54,179 nucleotides of DNA from Candidatus Aminicenantales bacterium (GTDB lineage: Bacteria; Acidobacteriota; Aminicenantia; Aminicenantales; UBA4085). Made by a program: the position numbers and the translations under genes. The notes beneath the pieces were generated by a model, which saw nothing but the letters and a program-made list of their open reading frames with translations, was not told where the DNA came from and did no database searches. Each line of letters starts with the position of its first letter. Position 1 is the first letter of the stretch. The DNA lies in contig JBEKTZ010000009.1 in assembly GCA_049515535.1 (NCBI GenBank), forward strand, positions 124,001 through 178,179. The letters run 5' to 3'. Below are positions 4,851 to 51,971 of the stretch, piece by piece.

Positions 4851-4918
4851 GTCAAGGGACGAGCCTTCGCGGCGGAAGTGGACCCCCGGGTAAAGCCCGG
4901 GGCCCCGGCCGCCGTGGA
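4851..4918 (+). repeat. Palindromic repeat family A, copy 1
   Basis: GTCAAGGGACGAGCCTTCGCGGCGGAAGTGGACCCCCGGGTAAAGCCCGGGGCCCCGGCCGCCGTGGA, 4 nt past the stop of the 4923 gene. Confidence 0.95.
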
Positions 4919-4922
4919 CGCG

Positions 4923-9948: not shown

Positions 9949-9962
9949 CGGAATTTCTCACC

Positions 9963-10069
9963 TCCACGGCGGACGGGGTCCCGGGCTTTGCCCGGGGGTT
10001 CACTTCCGCCGTACTCGCCCTTGGATATAAGCCACGGGCGAGTGGCGAGCCGAAGGCTCGTCCCTTGAC
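9963..10069 (-). repeat. Repeat family A, copy 2, with a 39-nt hairpin insertion
   Basis: Family A sequence interrupted at 10012-10050; its 3' end runs into the GGAGGT SD of the GHMP kinase gene. Confidence 0.92.
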
Positions 10070-15829: not shown

Positions 15830-15897
15830 GTCAAGGGACGAGCCTTCGCGGCGGAAGTGGACCCCCGGGTAAAGCCCGGGGCCCCGGCCGCCGTCGG
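15830..15897 (+). repeat. Repeat family A, copy 3 (in the leader of the sugar operon)
   Basis: Near-identical to copy 1; lies between the promoter at 15927-15955 and the AGGAGG SD. Confidence 0.95.
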
Positions 15898-15926
15898 CGG
15901 GCGCTGAATTTTTCAAAGCGCCGCCC

Positions 15927-15971: not shown

Positions 15972-16042
15972 GTCAAGGGACGAGCCTTCGCGGCGGAAGT
16001 GAACCCCCGGGCAAAGCCGGGGCCCCCCCCAGCCGCCGTGGA
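15972..16042 (+). repeat. Repeat family A, copy 4 (+3 nt)
   Basis: GTCAAGGGACGAGCCTTCGCGGCGGAAGTGAACCCCCGGGCAAAGCCGGGGCCCCCCCCAGCCGCCGTGGA. Confidence 0.93.
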
Positions 16043-16103
16043 CGCCGGCGCGAAAAACCGCCGGGCGGCTTCGCCGTTGGGAATGATGGGGAAAGGGAGG
16101 GGT

Positions 16104-16778: not shown

Positions 16779-16975
16779 ACGAGCGGTTCCCCGTGGCTTG
16801 CCACGGGGAACCGCTCGTAGAGGGATCCAAGGGGGAGCCGCCCCCTTGGTCGCAGTCCTATGCGGAGCATAGGGCGAGAAAGGGAGGCAGGGCAACACCG
16901 TTTTATACTCTTGGGTATAAAACGGCGTGCCCGTTGGAAGGGGGAAACGCGAAGCGGGTTCCCCCTCCAAATTGA
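16779..16975. repeat. Cluster of five tandem hairpins (REP/BIME-like mosaic)
   Basis: 16779-16818 (18-bp perfect stem, CTTG loop), 16827-16849 (9 bp), 16857-16873 (7 bp), 16898-16925 (11 bp), 16934-16970. Confidence 0.8.
16927..16975 (+). repeat. Repeat family B, copy 1
   Basis: 48/49 identical to the reverse complement of 35598-35646. Confidence 0.92.
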
Positions 16976-17391
16976 TTTCTGAACCCGGAAATCGAAGCGG
17001 CCGGGCGATTTTGGGGTCAGGGATAAAGTACTCCCTCGACTCATATTTGAATCAAGGGAGATTTGAAAGGAGGGTGGGAAGAGGCTCCTTAGCGATCCTC
17101 TTCTTTTTCACAACCTCGGCGTCGCTGCGGATGAGTTTCATCAGCGCCGTAGGGCTGCGAACTCGTCCCCATTGTCTCCCGGGACGAAAAGAGCGGCAAT
17201 CCCCTTTCCTGATGGAACCATGGGTGATTTTTCGCTCATGAAAATCACCCTCGACGTCGGCCGGGGGCTAGCCGTCTTTTCTTTTTCGGGCGGAGCGGAT
17301 ATACTTTCCACTTCATCCGGCATGGAGATCGATCCGTGCCTAAAAAACAAAGGGGACCGGGTGCCGCGTCCCCGCTCAAAAGGAGGTCGCG

Positions 17392-23168: not shown

Positions 23169-24437
23169 CTATTTTTCCTGCCAGGATTTGACGACGTAGG
23201 CGCCCGAGCTGCCGAAGCCGGTGGACAGGCTCCCCAGCGCCTCGTCGTAATGGATGGCGGCGTTGTTGCTTTGGACGATTTTGTTCGCGACGACCGAGCC
23301 GAAGATTCCGCCGTTATTGGATAGCGTCACGTCCGCCTTGGGGAAATATAGCGCGCCGTAGGTGGCCGTATTGTTGCAGAATGTTTTCGACCCGCTGAAC
23401 GAATCGGTCCCGAACATGAGGAGTTTCGTCGGGTCCTGGGTTAGGTTGTTGATCAGGGCGTTGTTGGAGATGTTCCAGGTCCCGCCGAAATACATCGTCA
23501 CGCCGCAGCCGCTGTTGATCCTGAACTGGGCGTTGTTCGAGAGGGTGAACGTTCCCGTGATATAAAGAGTGACGTTCGAGACGATCGTCACGACGGCGTT
23601 GTTGCTGAGCGTGAAATTCGTATATTGACTGCTTTGGCTGAGGCTCCCCGTGCCGTTATCGCCCAGGGAATAGTCGCCTTGATACGTCAGTCCCGTGGGC
23701 TCCGGGACCGAAGGCATAGCCTTGGGCGCGCTCAGGGCGGCTTTTTGTCCGGTGATGACGGAATTGTTCCCCTGGTGGATGACGGAATTCGGGTTCGACT
23801 GGTATCCCGTCATTGCGTCGCCGTCGATATAAGCGTTATTGTCAAACGTGAGCCCGACGTTGAGGCTGGCGTAGGTCGTGGCGTTGGTCCCGACGTCGCC
23901 GTTGTGATGAATGTTCGAGCCGCCGTAAGCGCCCAAGCGCGAGTCGTAGCTGTCGATATAGGCGTTATTGTCGACCGTCGCGCCCTTGTCGCCGAAGACG
24001 CCGAAATCGAAGGTCGGCGGCGCGCCGCCGGCCTGGAGAACGACGCAGACCGTTCGCGACAGATTCGCCGAGGCGACGAAAGGCACGGATCCCGTGGATT
24101 CGATCACGGGATTGTTGCCGGCGGGATCGCCGACCGTGATCGCGATATCGCCGATGACGTCGCCGTTGGAAGCCGTGAAATTCGGGATCGTCAAGGTCCG
24201 CGATGCGCTCGACCCGCTCCATGACGAGATATTTCCATAATTCAGCTCCCAGATGGCCCGCTCCACGCCGGCCTCGGCCAGGTTCAGCGCCGCCAGGGAC
24301 TTATAGGATTTTTCGGTGATATGATAGCGGCCGGTCATCTTGAACAAAAAGGGCAGGGCCATGCCCAGCAGGACAACGCCGACCAACAAGGAAAGGAACA
24401 GGGCAGCTCCTTTCTCCCGGGGTTTGGAACGGTGCAT
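23169..24437 (-). CDS. PilX-like minor pilin with a beta-helix-like C-terminal domain (paralog 2)
   Basis: REKG|AALF cleavage site without Glu5, ALNLAEAGVERA, repeated LSNNA/NN turns, HYDEAL, KSWQE. Confidence 0.82.
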   Translation of the reverse strand: MHRSKPREKGAALFLSLLVGVVLLGMALPFLFKMTGRYHITEKSYKSLAALNLAEAGVERAIWELNYGNISSWSGSSASRTLTIPNFTASNGDVIGDIAITVGDPAGNNPVIESTGSVPFVASANLSRTVCVVLQAGGAPPTFDFGVFGDKGATVDNNAYIDSYDSRLGAYGGSNIHHNGDVGTNATTYASLNVGLTFDNNAYIDGDAMTGYQSNPNSVIHQGNNSVITGQKAALSAPKAMPSVPEPTGLTYQGDYSLGDNGTGSLSQSSQYTNFTLSNNAVVTIVSNVTLYITGTFTLSNNAQFRINSGCGVTMYFGGTWNISNNALINNLTQDPTKLLMFGTDSFSGSKTFCNNTATYGALYFPKADVTLSNNGGIFGSVVANKIVQSNNAAIHYDEALGSLSTGFGSSGAYVVKSWQEK

Positions 24438-27767: not shown

Positions 27768-29074
27768 ATGATCTTCTCCTGCCAGGACTTCACCGAATAA
27801 GTGCTCGACGCGCCGCCACCAAAAGGCGGCGTGACGCTGCCGAGCGCCTCGTCGTAATGGATGGCCGCGTAATTCGCCCCCATGATCGTGTTGGCCGTGA
27901 CGGCACCGTAAATCGTGCTGCCATTGGCCAGCGTCAGGTTGGCTTTTGGCGTGTAAATACAGGCATACGTATCCGCGCTATTGGCAAAGGTCTGGGCCCC
28001 GGTGAAGGCGTCGGTCCCGAAAATCATCAGCTTGGTCGGATCCTTCGAGAGATTGTTGATCTGGGAGCCATTATTGATGTTCAACCCTCCCCCGAAATAG
28101 AGGGTGACGGAGCAGCCGCTGTTGATTTTGAACTGGGAAGTATTGCTCAAAGTGAACGTGCCCGTGATGTAGAGCGTCACGTCCGCCGTGACCGTGACGA
28201 CGGCGCTATTGACGAGGCTAAAATTCCCGTATTGGCCGCTGGCGTTGATCGTAGTGCTTGTTCCAACCTTTGAATAATCTCCCCTGGACGTCAATCCGAC
28301 CGGGGGCGTCACCGAGGGGAGCGTTTTTGTGCTCGTGAGCGCCGTTTTTTGTCCGGTGACGCTCGAACTGTTGACAACCTGAATGGCTTGATTGGGGTCG
28401 GACTGATAGCCCGACGTGGCATCGCCGTCGACCACGGAGGAGTTGATCAAGGAAATGGCCCCATAGCCGGTCGCGTTCGTTCCCACGTCGCCGTTGTGAT
28501 GGACATTCGTTCCGCCGTAGAGCCCCAGCCGGGAATCGTAGCTGTCGATCCGGGAGTTATTCATCATCGACACGCTCGTGTTGCCGAAGATCCCGTAGTT
28601 GAAGAGCGGCGGAGAGCCGCTGCCCTGGAGAACCACCCGGAGGGTCTTCGTGACTTTGTTCGTCCCGATATGCACGACGGATCCCGTGGCTTCGATCACG
28701 GGATTGACCGTTCCGGGATTGTAAACCGTGATGGCGATATCGCCGACAACGGTCCCGTTGGAGGCCGCGAAATTCGCGATCGCCATCGTCCGCTGGGTCG
28801 ACGTGCCGCTCCACGTGCCGATATTGCCGTAGTTGATTTCCCAGATCGCCCGCTCGATGCCGGCCTCGGCCAAATATTGCGCGGCCAGGGAATTATACGA
28901 CTTCTCGGCCGTCCGGTACCGGTTGGCGAATTTGGTCACGAACGGAACGGCGATGATCAGCATGAAGACGGACACGAGAAGGGCGATGGCCAGGACCGAG
29001 CCGCGTTCGCGTCCGGTTCGGCGGCGGCCAAAGGCTCGAGGCAAATTCATGGTTGATCTCCCGAATCGTTTCAT
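27764..29074 (-). CDS. PilX-like minor pilin with a beta-helix-like C-terminal domain (paralog 1)
   Basis: RERG|SVLA, YLAEAGIERA, IDSYDSRLG, HYDEALG, VKSWQEK; clearly paralogous to 23169..24437. Confidence 0.82.
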   Translation of the reverse strand: MKRFGRSTMNLPRAFGRRRTGRERGSVLAIALLVSVFMLIIAVPFVTKFANRYRTAEKSYNSLAAQYLAEAGIERAIWEINYGNIGTWSGTSTQRTMAIANFAASNGTVVGDIAITVYNPGTVNPVIEATGSVVHIGTNKVTKTLRVVLQGSGSPPLFNYGIFGNTSVSMMNNSRIDSYDSRLGLYGGTNVHHNGDVGTNATGYGAISLINSSVVDGDATSGYQSDPNQAIQVVNSSSVTGQKTALTSTKTLPSVTPPVGLTSRGDYSKVGTSTTINASGQYGNFSLVNSAVVTVTADVTLYITGTFTLSNTSQFKINSGCSVTLYFGGGLNINNGSQINNLSKDPTKLMIFGTDAFTGAQTFANSADTYACIYTPKANLTLANGSTIYGAVTANTIMGANYAAIHYDEALGSVTPPFGGGASSTYSVKSWQEKII

Positions 29075-35572: not shown

Positions 35573-35601
35573 ATTTTAGAAGAATCGCTCCGCCAAGTCA
35601 A
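35573..35601 (-). promoter_or_regulatory. Sigma70 promoter of the tRNA
   Basis: TTGACT-17 bp-TAAAAT, 11 nt before the tRNA 5' end. Confidence 0.78.
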
Positions 35602-35646
35602 TTTTGAGGGGGAACCCGCTTCGCGTTTCCCCCTTCCAACGGGCAC
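35598..35646 (-). repeat. Repeat family B, copy 2
   Basis: TCAATTTTGAGGGGGAACCCGCTTCGCGTTTCCCCCTTCCAACGGGCAC on the plus strand; 6 nt from family A copy 5. Confidence 0.92.
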
Positions 35647-35652
35647 CGGGAA

Positions 35653-35720
35653 GTCAAGGGACGAGCCTTCGCGGCGGAAGTGGACCCCCGGGCAAAGCCC
35701 GGGGCCCCGGCCGCTATGGA
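35653..35720 (+). repeat. Repeat family A, copy 5
   Basis: GTCAAGGGACGAGCC...CCCCGGGCAAAGCCCGGGGCCCCGGCCGCTATGGA. Confidence 0.95.
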
Positions 35721-35761
35721 GCCAGCTCTTCGATTTTGATAGAATGCGATTGGGTTCTCTT

Positions 35762-43822: not shown

Positions 43823-45946
<2,124 letters not shown>

Positions 45947-45959
45947 GGGGGACCTCCTT

Positions 45960-46027
45960 GTCAAGGGACGAGCCTTCGCGGCGGAAGTAGACCCCCGGGC
46001 AAAGCCCGGGGCCCCGTCCGCCGTCGA
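45960..46027 (+). repeat. Repeat family A, copy 6
   Basis: Directly abuts the AAGGAGG SD of the prolyl oligopeptidase gene. Confidence 0.95.
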
Positions 46028-46088
46028 AATGGGCGATGAGTTCTTTTTCTATCATAGGCCGAAATGGCGGTCAACGGGATTGGTCCCG

Positions 46089-48721: not shown

Positions 48722-50040
48722 CACTTCCCCGCCTTCTTCGGCTCCATCTTCCGCAAATCCAGCCCCTGTTCGAAAGCGCCGATCCTGTAGAGACAGATCT
48801 CGCGGAGCGAGGACGGATGATGGAGGACCTCGGACAGCGATTGCTGCCCGACCGCCCAAACGCCGCCGCCCCTCACGACGACGACCTTATACTCATGGAG
48901 CAGCCGGATGAGAGTCTCCGGATCCGGCTTCGGCGGGACAACCGGAATGACCAGATACAGGAAGCTCCCTTCGGCATCGATCGGCACGATCCGGTCGCTC
49001 GGCCCGTCCTCGCCCGGATACCGGAAATGCGCCTGCGCCTCGGCGTCCGGCAGGTAACAATGCATCACGGTCTGGAAATCGGTCGCGGCGTAAATGGTCT
49101 TGTGCCAGCCGAGCTCCGCCGAATCCGACGCCTCCGCCCGCAGGGGGATCTTGAGCAGCGGCCCGCCGATGTCGCGCGGCATGGACGCTTTCGGAGCGTA
49201 GAGAAGATCGTTCACGCCGCGGACGGACATCGACCCCGTGTGGAACGGCGACAGCCGCGATTCGAAGATGCGCGTGCCCGCCTTGCGAAATTCCCTGAGG
49301 ATCTCGGTTTCCTCCGCGAACGCATTGACCTCGTCGCCTTCGATTTCGAACCGGTCGGGTGGATACGAAAAAAACGCGGCAGGATCGGCCCGCAGGCGCG
49401 TCCTCAGCGCCTCGATATCCACGCCCAATTTTTTTGCGGCCCTCACGACGGCGCCCGCATTGTTCGCGACGCACTGGAGGAAAAACGCCTCTTTGAGCGT
49501 CCGGCCCCTGGCGAAGGTCCCGTGCGCCTGGATGACCGTCGCCGGATGATCGGCCAGGCGCTTCGGGATGATCTCGGCCATTTCGGGAGAACCGCTCGGC
49601 ACGGCCACCCAGTCCACGTGGACGTGGTCGCCCAGGTGATGGAAGCCGAGCGGATCGATCGGCACGAAATCCGCCGGCCGGCCGGGCTTCTCGGCGTCAT
49701 CGAGCGTGGCGATAGCCAGATCTTTCGTGTGGGCGTGGATCGAAGCCCGCGCCCCTTCGATCGACAGGATCCGTTGATGGATATCGGTTTCCGAAGAGGC
49801 CTTGTAATATCCGTAATCCGTCTCGGTCGCGGATAGAAAACAGATCTGGTCCGGCTCGAGATCGCCCTTCTGCGACCCCGTGGCCGTGATGATGATCTGG
49901 TCTTCGCCGGCGTCGCCTTTGATCCGGACGGCCATGTTGCCGCTATGGCTGTCCTGGATATCGTAAATGAGCGAGGCGCGGCCGACGGACGTGAAGAGAC
50001 GCAGGATCTCGTCACTGACGTTCCATCCATGGCGATTCAT
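48718..50040 (-). CDS. Class II aldolase/adducin family protein with two tandem domains
   Basis: Domain 1: SGNMAVR, ASSETDIH, IHAH, QAHG. Domain 2: TGSMSVR, SAELGWH, MHCY, VRGGG. Confidence 0.82.
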   Translation of the reverse strand: MNRHGWNVSDEILRLFTSVGRASLIYDIQDSHSGNMAVRIKGDAGEDQIIITATGSQKGDLEPDQICFLSATETDYGYYKASSETDIHQRILSIEGARASIHAHTKDLAIATLDDAEKPGRPADFVPIDPLGFHHLGDHVHVDWVAVPSGSPEMAEIIPKRLADHPATVIQAHGTFARGRTLKEAFFLQCVANNAGAVVRAAKKLGVDIEALRTRLRADPAAFFSYPPDRFEIEGDEVNAFAEETEILREFRKAGTRIFESRLSPFHTGSMSVRGVNDLLYAPKASMPRDIGGPLLKIPLRAEASDSAELGWHKTIYAATDFQTVMHCYLPDAEAQAHFRYPGEDGPSDRIVPIDAEGSFLYLVIPVVPPKPDPETLIRLLHEYKVVVVRGGGVWAVGQQSLSEVLHHPSSLREICLYRIGAFEQGLDLRKMEPKKAGKW

Positions 50041-51971
50041 CTTGGTCGTCCTTCGATTCTCAGGGATCTCATGAGAGCGCCGCTGGGACGGCCGGTTTCG
50101 TCCCAGCCCCGCACCTCATAATAATCCCGCCGCATCCTTTCCTGGGCTTCGCGCGAGACGGTTTTCTTTTCCCCGGCGACGATGATCGGGACTTCGCTGA
50201 AGCGCGGCGGGAGGATGTCGTCCTCCGCGGTCGCCCCCGCCTCGTAATTGATCAGCCTTTCGAGGGTGGCGATCCGGTTGGCGATATCTTCCAAACGCGC
50301 TTCGGAAAAATCCATGCCCGTGACGCCCGTCATCATCCGCGCCCAGGGACCGGTGTCGAAAGCGAACCCCGTGAAACGGCATATGCCCAAACTGTCCTGG
50401 AGGATGCCCTTGTTTTGCATGTTCCGGACGGCTATGGGCGACTGAAGCAGACTGAAGCGCGGGATTTCCTTGGTCCCGCCGAAGAAGGCGAGCGAGACCG
50501 CGTACCCTCCGCGCAGATGGCAGGCGCCGGTGGGCGACGTCATGTATCCGAGCGCCTGGGTGAATGAGGCGCGCGGGTCGTAGCCGGGGATTTCGAGCCG
50601 CTTCACGGACATCGACAGCTCGGGACGGCCGAAACGGCCGGCCAGGCGGAACGATCCTTCGGCCAGGAGATCACCGATTCCGCGGCGGTAGGCCGTGGCG
50701 CGGGCGAGCGGTTCCAAAACCGCGGCGTTTCCGAAACGGAGATCGAAACCACCGGCGGCCTCGGACGGCAGATGGCCGCCCTCGAAGAGTTCCATAGCGC
50801 AGGCCACCGTGCCTCCGAAGCTCATGGTGTCCAGGCCGAGTTCGTTGCACCGGTAATTGGCTCGCGCGATCGCCTCGAGATCATAGACGTCGCAGACGGG
50901 GCCCATCATGACGATCGTTTCGTATTCGGGACCTTCGCCCCTTTCAATCCCGCCGGCGCCGGATTCCACGGCGGACGGGGCCCCGGGTTTTGCCCGGGGG
51001 TCCACTTCCGCCGCGAAGGTTCGTCCCTTGACCCGCGTGTGGCGCTGACAGCCGATCGGGCAGAGATAACATCCTCCCGCGCGCTCTAGCAGCGTCCTGG
51101 CGAGCGTCGCGCCGGAGATCTTTTCCAGATTCTCCTCGATATGCCGGCTGTCCTGGAAGTTCCTGTGCGGCAGCATGCTGATGACATTGATCAATTCGAT
51201 GAGCCCCGCGGTCCCGAGCTCGCGGAGGAGACGCTTGGTGACGGGCGCCTGTTTCATGAGGTAGAGCGCCTGCTCGTAGCCGGACTGGTAGCGTTCTTTG
51301 TCCTTGATCTGGATCTTCGCCTTGCCCGAGACGCGGATGGCCTTGAGATGCTTGGCCCCCCAGATCGCCCCGGGCCCGCAGCGGCCGTAAACCCGGTTTT
51401 TATCGTTCACGACGGCCGCGATCCGGACGAGGTTTTCGCCGGCCGGACCGATGCAGAGAATCTTCGGGCGGCTGCCAGGCTCTCCGTCCGCAATCAAGGC
51501 GTCGGTGGTCTGATGCGCGTCGAGACCCCAAAGACGGCCCGCCGGCGCGATCGACGTTTTTTCCGGGGTGATATCGATGACGACGGGTTCAGCGGCGCGC
51601 CCTTTGACGACGACGGCGTCATAGCCCGTGGCCTTGAACGCGGCGCCCCACGTTCCGCCCGAATTCGAGGTTCCGATAAGCCCGGTCAGCGGCGATTTGA
51701 AGACCATGTGCCCGCGGCCGGCGGTCGGCGCGTTCGTCCCGATAAGAGGGGACGCGGCGATGACGACGACGTTGTCCGGGCCGAGGGGATCGCAGCGCGG
51801 GTCCGCGACGTCATAAAACAGGCGCGTGGCCAATCCGCGTCCGCCGAGATAGTCGGCCACGAGCTCGGCGGCCAGCGGTTTGATCAGGATATCGCCCGTG
51901 GTCAGGTCAATCTCGAGATATCGGCCGTGAAAGCCATAGCGCGCATCGCTCATTTTTGTTTTGAAATCCAA
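50037..51971 (-). CDS. aor: Aldehyde:ferredoxin oxidoreductase family (W/Mo-pterin)
   Basis: LGGRGLA, KSPLTG, IGPAGENLV, GAKHLKAI, CYLCPIGC, EGPEYET, GLDTMS, GACH, YYEVRGWD. Start may be 51953. Confidence 0.93.
   Translation of the reverse strand: MDFKTKMSDARYGFHGRYLEIDLTTGDILIKPLAAELVADYLGGRGLATRLFYDVADPRCDPLGPDNVVVIAASPLIGTNAPTAGRGHMVFKSPLTGLIGTSNSGGTWGAAFKATGYDAVVVKGRAAEPVVIDITPEKTSIAPAGRLWGLDAHQTTDALIADGEPGSRPKILCIGPAGENLVRIAAVVNDKNRVYGRCGPGAIWGAKHLKAIRVSGKAKIQIKDKERYQSGYEQALYLMKQAPVTKRLLRELGTAGLIELINVISMLPHRNFQDSRHIEENLEKISGATLARTLLERAGGCYLCPIGCQRHTRVKGRTFAAEVDPRAKPGAPSAVESGAGGIERGEGPEYETIVMMGPVCDVYDLEAIARANYRCNELGLDTMSFGGTVACAMELFEGGHLPSEAAGGFDLRFGNAAVLEPLARATAYRRGIGDLLAEGSFRLAGRFGRPELSMSVKRLEIPGYDPRASFTQALGYMTSPTGACHLRGGYAVSLAFFGGTKEIPRFSLLQSPIAVRNMQNKGILQDSLGICRFTGFAFDTGPWARMMTGVTGMDFSEARLEDIANRIATLERLINYEAGATAEDDILPPRFSEVPIIVAGEKKTVSREAQERMRRDYYEVRGWDETGRPSGALMRSLRIEGRPR
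50964..51032 (-). repeat. Repeat family A, copy 7, in frame within aor
   Basis: Encodes VKGRTFAAEVDPRAKPGAPSAVE (residues 314-336 of the listed ORF). Confidence 0.95.

Follow-up and report, generated by a model that had tools for sequence, protein, structure and literature searches.

The window, a stretch of 54,179 nucleotides from a Candidatus Aminicenantales bacterium, carries a gene for a predicted protein of the aldehyde:ferredoxin oxidoreductase (AOR) family (Table 1), for which a second possible start codon, TTG, lies at position 51971. Membership in this family is supported by the presence of both AFOR domains, the AOR fold, and the cluster and pterin-site motifs. The protein matches the solved structures 9mqx and 1aor, and its alignments to solved AORs consist of two blocks that are split at an inserted segment. 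The three cysteines of the CxxCxxxC motif, which we take to be the 4Fe-4S ligands, lie on one side of the segment, and the GPEYE motif lies on the other. The neighboring genes encode a ThiS-family protein, an NTPase, a class II aldolase, and LUD-domain proteins; further AOR-family genes are present in the same genome.

A sequence-only reading of this DNA had interpreted the segment as a palindromic repeat translated in frame. Indeed, the minus strand of positions 50964-51032 translates to the 23-residue peptide quoted there, within the open 638-aa AFOR_N/AFOR_C frame; the peptide starts five residues past C302, GPEYE follows intact at residues 341-345, and the repeat is the seventh of seven copies in the window.

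Table 1. Positions of the AOR-family gene, its motifs, the inserted element, and the other repeat copies, numbered along the window
Feature	Position	Strand	Remarks
AOR-family host gene	50037..51953	-	638 aa; Pfam AFOR_N and AFOR_C
CxxCxxxC motif, C295-x2-C298-x3-C302	51048..51071	-	intact; five codons before the insert
GPEYE motif, residues 341-345	50919..50933	-	intact; 3' of the insert; invariant across 114 aligned proteins
Inserted element, 63 nt	50969..51031	+	contig joints in X2 and X3; empty alleles P0003 and P0004; end conservation over 109 copies
Main imperfect hairpin of the element	50969..51013	+	from the fold; starts with the element's first base
Host side of the target	50964..50968	+	TCCA at 50965-50968 (consensus TCSA); 51032 is Y past the cut; degenerate across copies; empty allele
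Repeat copy, 63-nt type	4851..4919	+	coordinates include target bases; no in-frame gene position
Repeat copy, 102-nt type	9962..10069	-	extra 39-nt hairpin module
Repeat copy, 63-nt type	15830..15898	+	
Repeat copy, 66-nt variant	15972..16043	+	
Repeat copy, 63-nt type	35653..35721	+	
Repeat copy, 63-nt type	45960..46028	+	immediately upstream of a prolyl oligopeptidase gene

The insertion and its host protein

The size of the insertion was derived from three types of comparison: (i) the distance from the first motif cysteine to GPEYE is 51 aa in the window's protein versus 29-32 aa in each of the 23 further ortholog loci that could be read (25 were examined, one being the window's own and one lacking a readable motif), and over 114 aligned proteins the CxxCxxxC-to-GPEYE length equals 51 aa in two and falls within 25-36 aa in the other 112; (ii) the 90% cluster of the protein comprises, besides one filled allele (P0002), two empty alleles, P0003 (95% identical) and P0004 (97%), that are exactly 21 residues shorter; and (iii) among four DNA runs compared with the gene (X1, X2, X3, and X7, the last without coverage of the site), contigs of X2 and X3, which come from two other studies and are ~97% identical, skip exactly 63 nt. 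This joint has a two-base ambiguity, fitting positions 50968-51030 or 50970-51032 as well as 50969-51031. Because the shorter orthologs, the empty alleles, and the DNA joint agree, the net insertion is 63 nt, or 21 aa, with 50969-51031 as its preferred placement. Thus, the gap in orthologs anticipated by the sequence-only reading exists, with a length of 21 aa instead of 23-26 aa; the V and E of the quoted peptide belong to the host. The proposed extension by three codons fails, since the CCGGCGC flank (encoding SGAG) is present in the empty allele P0004 and is therefore host sequence.

The filled allele P0002 (97% identical, 11 contigs) carries the insert at the same site with three differences. 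Filled and empty alleles are found among very close relatives; the insertion in the AOR gene is recent and polymorphic. Informative sites conflict as to whether the empty state of P0004 reflects precise loss or recombination. That the assembler merely threaded a repeat into the gene is barely credible: in X1, the possible source run, the gene is split in two contigs with the break inside the repeat, as such an artefact might leave it, but both contigs carry their junctions without mismatch, and the separately assembled P0002 shows a variant insert of its own at this site.

A structure model built from 114 sequences (pLDDT 79.9; TM 0.88 to 1aor) replaced an unusable earlier one from 17 sequences (pLDDT 54.6), and in this prediction the AOR fold appears to be retained with the insert in place. 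Residues 303-330, the insert region, have pLDDT below 50, as would suit the surface loop that had been expected there; however, other cofactor-site segments of this cofactor-free model are also below 50, and since the cluster region is among them, low pLDDT alone is no proof of a surface loop. The alignments indicate that the insertion site is a loop that already varies in length, with 25-36 aa in orthologs.

We consider it improbable that the insertion impairs or kills the enzyme and that the open frame marks a recent casualty before decay. The position of the insert five residues past the cluster-binding motif and the other AOR-family genes in the genome would be compatible with such a loss, and in Rickettsia, one filled enzyme was active but its affinity for the substrate was altered (Abergel 2006, as reported in the available text of PMC2229807). 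Against impairment, the variable loop length is joined by three observations. The two filled alleles differ at 17 other residues, yet both frames are intact. Changes on the window's branch are mostly synonymous, 10 versus 4 conservative nonsynonymous ones (p 0.0004 against neutrality), as counted at the 14 sites where X2 equals X3 against the window among 40 differences listed (115 more exist), these changes being not datable relative to the insertion. Finally, the sole gltX found in the genome carries the same repeat. Judging from these comparisons, the filled AOR probably still works.

The repeat family and its copies in genes

A genome-wide BLAST search with the repeat gave 133 matches that merge to 123 elements; under a stricter definition, there are 119 left ends and 109 copies with both ends. 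The complete copies are 63 nt (51 copies), 102 nt (38), 129 nt (6), 141 nt (2), or of other lengths (12), and 100 of the 109 have a length divisible by three. Longer forms contain additional hairpin modules, and in the 129-nt form a copy of 102 nt has inserted into a 63-nt copy at a target-like site. With a range of 62-141 nt in the window's genome and up to 215 nt in relatives, the element is too short for a transposase. The copy in the AOR gene folds better than its shuffles (z -3.25; 1 of 200 as good).

Within the class, 17 of 339 genomes, from three families, contain an exact 18-mer of one element end, with 1 to 147 copies each. A 32-mer of the repeat was located at 75 loci among 185,579 species genomes, 68 of them titled Aminicenantes or Aminicenantia, 7 titled otherwise, and none titled Rickettsia; one viral-contig match (L285) also turned up. 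Rfam contains no family matching at its cut-off, the four weak matches scoring 15-21 bits versus cut-offs of 42-79. A description of the family was not found in the literature searched, which largely excluded subscription papers, and a search on cyanobacterial small dispersed repeats returned nothing relevant. The repeat family thus seems to be undescribed so far.

According to gene calls by our own simple caller, 17 of the 109 copies in the window's genome lie in frame within genes, using three different reading frames. Besides AOR, the hosts are GluRS, a LeuC-like enzyme, an M28 peptidase, an LptA/C fusion, a GNAT protein, an HD protein, a methyltransferase, a GT2 glycosyltransferase, a histidine kinase, a NUDIX enzyme, a PIN protein, iPGM-like, BamA-like, and AlkP-family proteins, and two proteins without a Pfam match. 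In 14 of the 17 cases, at least one homolog is shorter by the expected 21, 34, 47, or 55 residues. No full-length gltX other than the repeat-bearing GluRS gene was found in the genome, which is 94% complete, and all five orthologs lack the insert. For the PIN-domain protein the evidence is weak, as 1 of 4 homologs has 21 residues less; the LptA/C comparison relies on the 3 of 5 orthologs that were readable, and the BamA-like and AlkP cases have no empty homolog among cluster members. Several candidates were left out of the 17 in-frame copies, namely a partial 5' match within a GH38 gene (C1:154891), copies at extreme ORF ends (ispG, an epimerase, and a 103-nt copy at C10:87708), and an upstream copy (C3:203407).

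In related genomes, 13 of the 86 copies examined lie inside genes with a homolog in the window's genome. Twelve of these are in frame, and the other, a 178-nt copy with a length not divisible by three (L103), shifts the frame of its gene. At individual sites, the inserted length varies stepwise among alleles: 0, 33, or 55 residues (NUDIX), 21 or 34 (LeuC-like), and 21 or 74 (AlkP-family). Removal of the segment from the RNA as a mini-intron, or its skipping in translation, is highly improbable. A stable hairpin that is tolerated in an essential-type gene might suggest such a process; however, all retained coding copies keep the frame open on either strand, the L103 copy does break its gene, and Rfam offers no family at its cut-off. 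Moreover, a self-splicing intron would need more than 63 nt.

The genome contains 42,655 target motifs, 88% of which are coding according to the same gene calls. With 17 of 109 copies in frame, the survival of coding insertions is ~2% relative to intergenic ones, provided that targeting is neutral in other respects. Short copies are more frequent in genes, 14 of 51 for the 63-nt form versus 1 of 38 for the 102-nt form (p 0.002). The sequence-only reading had credited the stop-poor sequence of the repeat; five of its six frames are open, a result that 54% of 5000 base shuffles also reach. Stop-poor sequence is ordinary for 73% GC, and it is the length divisible by three that matters. The inserts differ at 18 of 226 residues versus 145 of 4817 in their hosts, and thus diverge about 2.6 times faster, as measured in ten genes, each represented by its most divergent filled allele; one of the genes contributes 7 of the 18. 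On these alignments, the faster divergence fits a tolerated, drifting cargo. Together with the variable loop length in orthologs, it makes the claim that the repeat creates new protein loops overstated.

The best reading is that in-frame insertions are tolerated rather than favored. Selection of the inserted peptides or hairpins for a function, such as new loops or mRNA control, a view to which the sequence-only reading inclined, is very unlikely: the methyltransferase insertion is unchanged in 5 of 5 alleles and most copies are multiples of three, which could speak for it, but the repeat is read in three different frames in unrelated proteins, the inserts outpace their hosts in divergence, coding copies are strongly depleted, and filled and empty alleles coexist while loops both lengthen and shorten. 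A related proposal, doubtful but with some real chance of being correct, is that the element itself is selected for frame neutrality, with protein loops growing and shrinking stepwise via nested insertion and module loss. All abundant forms of the window's family are multiples of three (63, 102, 129, and 141 nt; up to 147 copies), whereas a second repeat family is mostly not (101, 62, 56, and 67 nt) and reaches at most 16 copies per genome; among the modules, 8 of 11 are multiples of three (p 0.009), in a tally made post hoc. Speaking against this proposal, the 178-nt form accounts for 7 of 75 copies in one high-copy genome, the related genomes are non-independent, and only ~16% of copies lie in genes. 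If true, it would make a peel-and-paste element act as a reversible generator of loops.

Ends, target, and mobilizing enzyme

On the AOR-coding strand the element runs from TCAAGG to CCGCCG, contributing the 21 extra codons; on the other strand, it follows TCSA and ends with TTGA. The plus strand of the window's element (CGGCGG...CCCTTGA) is, by inference, the transposing strand. Several features of the ends were observed: (i) terminal inverted repeats are absent, TCAAGG and CCGCCG being not complementary; (ii) the last element base on the AOR-coding strand is G in 108 of 109 copies; (iii) the four bases after it are T in 90 copies, C in 57 or G in 41, G in 102, and A in 92, and the element is preceded by G in 97 copies and by A in 11; and (iv) the end logos contain neither a GTAG nor a CGTC tag. 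The target is a degenerate TCSA/Y (the slash marks the cut) beside near-invariant element bases, and in the AOR gene TCCA together with Y at 51032 rebuilds the host codons V-E. No target duplication was detected, as the flank test stayed at background (3-mers at most 4 of 114) and the joint is exactly 63 nt. Three cut positions fit the joint; variation favors R/TSGA, the 92%-identical empty allele P0134 speaks against RT/SGA, and a cut at TCSAC/ may be an alternative.

The strand carrying the target and then the element is the G-rich one for 80 of 107 copies (p 3e-7), with similar results at three window sizes; this orientation is the majority in 15 of 16 contigs, the remaining one being a tie, and the copy in the AOR gene belongs to the 27 exceptions. 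The G-rich strand is taken to be the lagging-strand template, a general rule that is applied here to a weak skew in a 32-contig assembly. As controls, the bare target motif is unbiased between strands (52:48), copy orientation is unbiased relative to flanking genes (31:27), and a second repeat family, which has its left-end hairpin in common with the IS200-type element of the genome, is biased in the same direction (11 of 13). Such a bias is as expected for single-strand transposition by IS200/IS605 (Y1) enzymes, which the accessible part of PMC5027513 ties to the lagging-strand template; IS608 inserts 3' of a tetranucleotide with no DNA gained or lost, according to passages of PMC3201880, and the element and its TCSA target have this same geometry.

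Comparison with Y1 loci gave a mixed picture. The inner stem-loop of the element is ~1 base from the right-end hairpins of IS200-type elements in related genomes (L193, L197), and the IS200-type elements with the most similar hairpin reside in two genomes without any detected copy of the repeat (G009, G022). None of the 41 Y1-transposase loci inspected, a non-exhaustive sample from 41 genomes, has the element ends within ~1.5 kb, apart from one weak match with two mismatches (L201). Forty regions around copies in low-copy genomes, inspected over 260 nt, contain just short elements or truncated ends. The IS200-type tnpA of the window's genome is interrupted by a stop codon. PF07282 (Cas12f1-like/TnpB zinc-ribbon) is absent from the genome, the transposase search having covered Y1 loci and PF07282. 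No guide sequence was identified, and 585 and 795 tests for covariation between variants and target yielded none that was convincing.

We conclude, with a probability of roughly two thirds (0.68), that the segment in the AOR gene entered recently as a non-autonomous PATE-like element, mobilized in trans by an IS200/IS605-type Y1 (HUH) transposase. The enzyme would bind the hairpin and cut one strand out as a circle, and this single-strand circle would be pasted 3' of TCSA on the lagging-strand template. As the majority of target motifs are within genes, most insertions are presumably purged. Survivors would be those with a length divisible by three and an open frame, placed within loops or linkers that tolerate indels. 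In AOR, the outcome would be a flexible extension of 21 residues in the loop past CxxCxxxC, carried as neutral or slightly costly cargo.

The same tolerated in-frame repeat could have been mobilized by another enzyme, such as a RAYT/TIRYT-type Y1 transposase, an IS91-type rolling-circle transposase, or something else; we regard this as unlikely. RAYT/TIRYT and IS91-type enzymes also use hairpins without target duplication, RAYT-like Y1 genes are present in the window's genome and most relatives, and the cognate IS200/IS605 parent was not found at the 41 Y1 loci. However, the inverted repeats flanking the RAYT-like gene of the window's genome are unrelated to the element, the element lies beside none of these 41 loci, its ends lack the GTAG/CGTC tag, and its strand bias has the direction of the IS200-linked control family.

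Significance and comparison with known systems

In-frame palindromes are already known from Rickettsia and other bacteria; therefore, nothing is overturned by the present case. Its value is that of a clean, recent test case for in-frame repeats. In the consulted sections of two RPE reviews (PMC10969869, PMC2229807), target duplication is left open and the effects on proteins are largely unexplored, and here the ends, target, and replication-strand bias indicate a specific enzyme class. Since natural filled and empty alleles exist at 94-98% identity for several genes, the cost of a random 21-residue loop is directly measurable. The repeat also puts spurious shared peptides into unrelated Aminicenantes proteins and can thereby mislead clustering and annotation.

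The sequence-only reading had called the repeat RPE-like, and the likeness holds for a dispersed palindrome read in frame, here in AOR and 16 other genes. RPEs, as portrayed in the same sections, are fused in frame in conserved genes and are probably neutral or slightly detrimental. However, RPEs are 105-146 bp long, have terminal inverted repeats, and are Rickettsia-specific, whereas our element has a 63-nt core, neither of the latter two properties, and a defined target; nearly half of RPEs are in ORFs (PMC10969869, in part), compared with 17 of 109 copies here. Thus, the element resembles RPEs in its effect on genes and does not belong to them. The view that coding insertions are confined to Rickettsia and few other lineages was too narrow: intragenic GTAG/CGTC REPs, as outlined in portions of PMC3733652, are palindromes in ORFs of many species, tRNA synthetases included, that add 20-30 residues, and GTAG REPs are linked there to Y1 transposases. 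REPs differ by their length of 20-40 bp and their GTAG or CGTC tag; our element is longer and untagged, has asymmetric ends, and flanks no RAYT gene (0 of 41 Y1 loci). In-frame insertion of other repeats in genes has also been described (PMC3184786, in the text available).

DDE-mobilized MITEs differ from the element by terminal inverted repeats and target duplication, both of which it lacks. The non-autonomous ISC/IS605B elements of PMC4810608, insofar as the extracts of that paper describe them, likewise use a specific short target without duplication, and the ISC targets GT/GG and GT/RA resemble the R/TSGA of the element; unlike ISC/IS605B, the element has no IscB, TnpB, or TnpA cargo. A tie to the lagging-strand template, as the strand bias suggests, would be shared with IS608 (PMC3201880 and PMC5027513, both in part).

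A close parallel is provided by the PATEs of Haloquadratum. By the definition in the available portion of PMC3119063, five of seven PATE features are present in the element, and likeness to a parent IS is limited to the inner hairpin (at L193 and L197). Like PATEs, the element is non-coding, has near-terminal palindromes but no terminal inverted repeats, causes no target duplication, uses a targeting sequence of 4-5 nt, is present in many copies, and is targeted by other small repeats. Three differences separate the two: a parent IS with both ends is absent here among the 41 Y1 loci, in-frame coding insertions are not described in that portion of PMC3119063, and copies of the Aminicenantes element nest inside each other and gain hairpin modules.

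Repeat copies in and around coding regions

In the iPGM-like protein, a 102-nt copy of the 63-nt repeat family lies in the linker. The metalloenzyme part of this protein comes before iPGM_N and the motif that is usually N-terminal; the protein is thus apparently circularly permuted, and the same domain order is found in six relatives. Two other proteins, IspG and the product of a gene on contig C5, are extended at their C-termini by 102-nt copies, and these extensions were left out of the count of internal insertions. The window copy at 45960-46028 overlaps TTG (45964), the first possible start of the prolyl oligopeptidase gene; ATG at 45946 is the likelier start. In another genome (locus L103, around 1500), a 178-nt copy, whose length is not a multiple of three, causes a frameshift in a conserved gene, likely a recent knock-out.

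Features listed by coordinates (C, contigs of this genome, G000; L, examined loci)
Feature	Coordinates	Remarks
102-nt repeat copies extending the C-terminus, two proteins	C2:344872-346194 (ispG); C5:224382-225869	
iPGM-like phosphoglycerate mutase (L233)	C2:209885-211621	relatives' loci L277-L282
IS200-type element, 613 bp (L046)	C9:107983-108345	TAA stop in tnpA
RAYT/TIRYT-like Y1 transposase gene (L047)	C13:96330-96653	
Palindromic repeat pair, 52 nt	window 16927-16978; 35595-35646	96% complementary
Long diverged direct repeats	window 23734-24378; 28338-28970	70-74%, ~4.6 kb apart

Possible tandem copies, other carriers and other repeats

Contigs from two other studies (X2 and X3) contain a joint from 51033 to 50969, running past the end of the 63-nt element and then back to its first base. 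This joint suggests head-to-tail tandem copies elsewhere; it does not match a circle junction exactly. Four repeat-bearing loci (L096, L098, L107 and L132) are titled 'uncultured Eubacteriales bacterium' and may represent either mislabelled bins or transfer across phyla.

Within the window, the second member of the 52-nt palindromic pair adjoins the 63-nt family copy at 35653. The direct repeats are probably paralogous genes or domains.

Y1 transposase loci and a second repeat family

An open-frame copy of the IS200-type element, 95% identical, is present in the related genome G014 (L147). The genome also contains a second multi-hairpin repeat family (14 copies listed, e.g. C1:75554 and C13:83540), which served as the control in the strand-bias test of the 63-nt family. 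Its copies start after TTGAC-like motifs and have a hairpin in common with the IS200-type element. The RAYT/TIRYT-like gene is bounded by inverted repeats of its own, unrelated to the 63-nt family.
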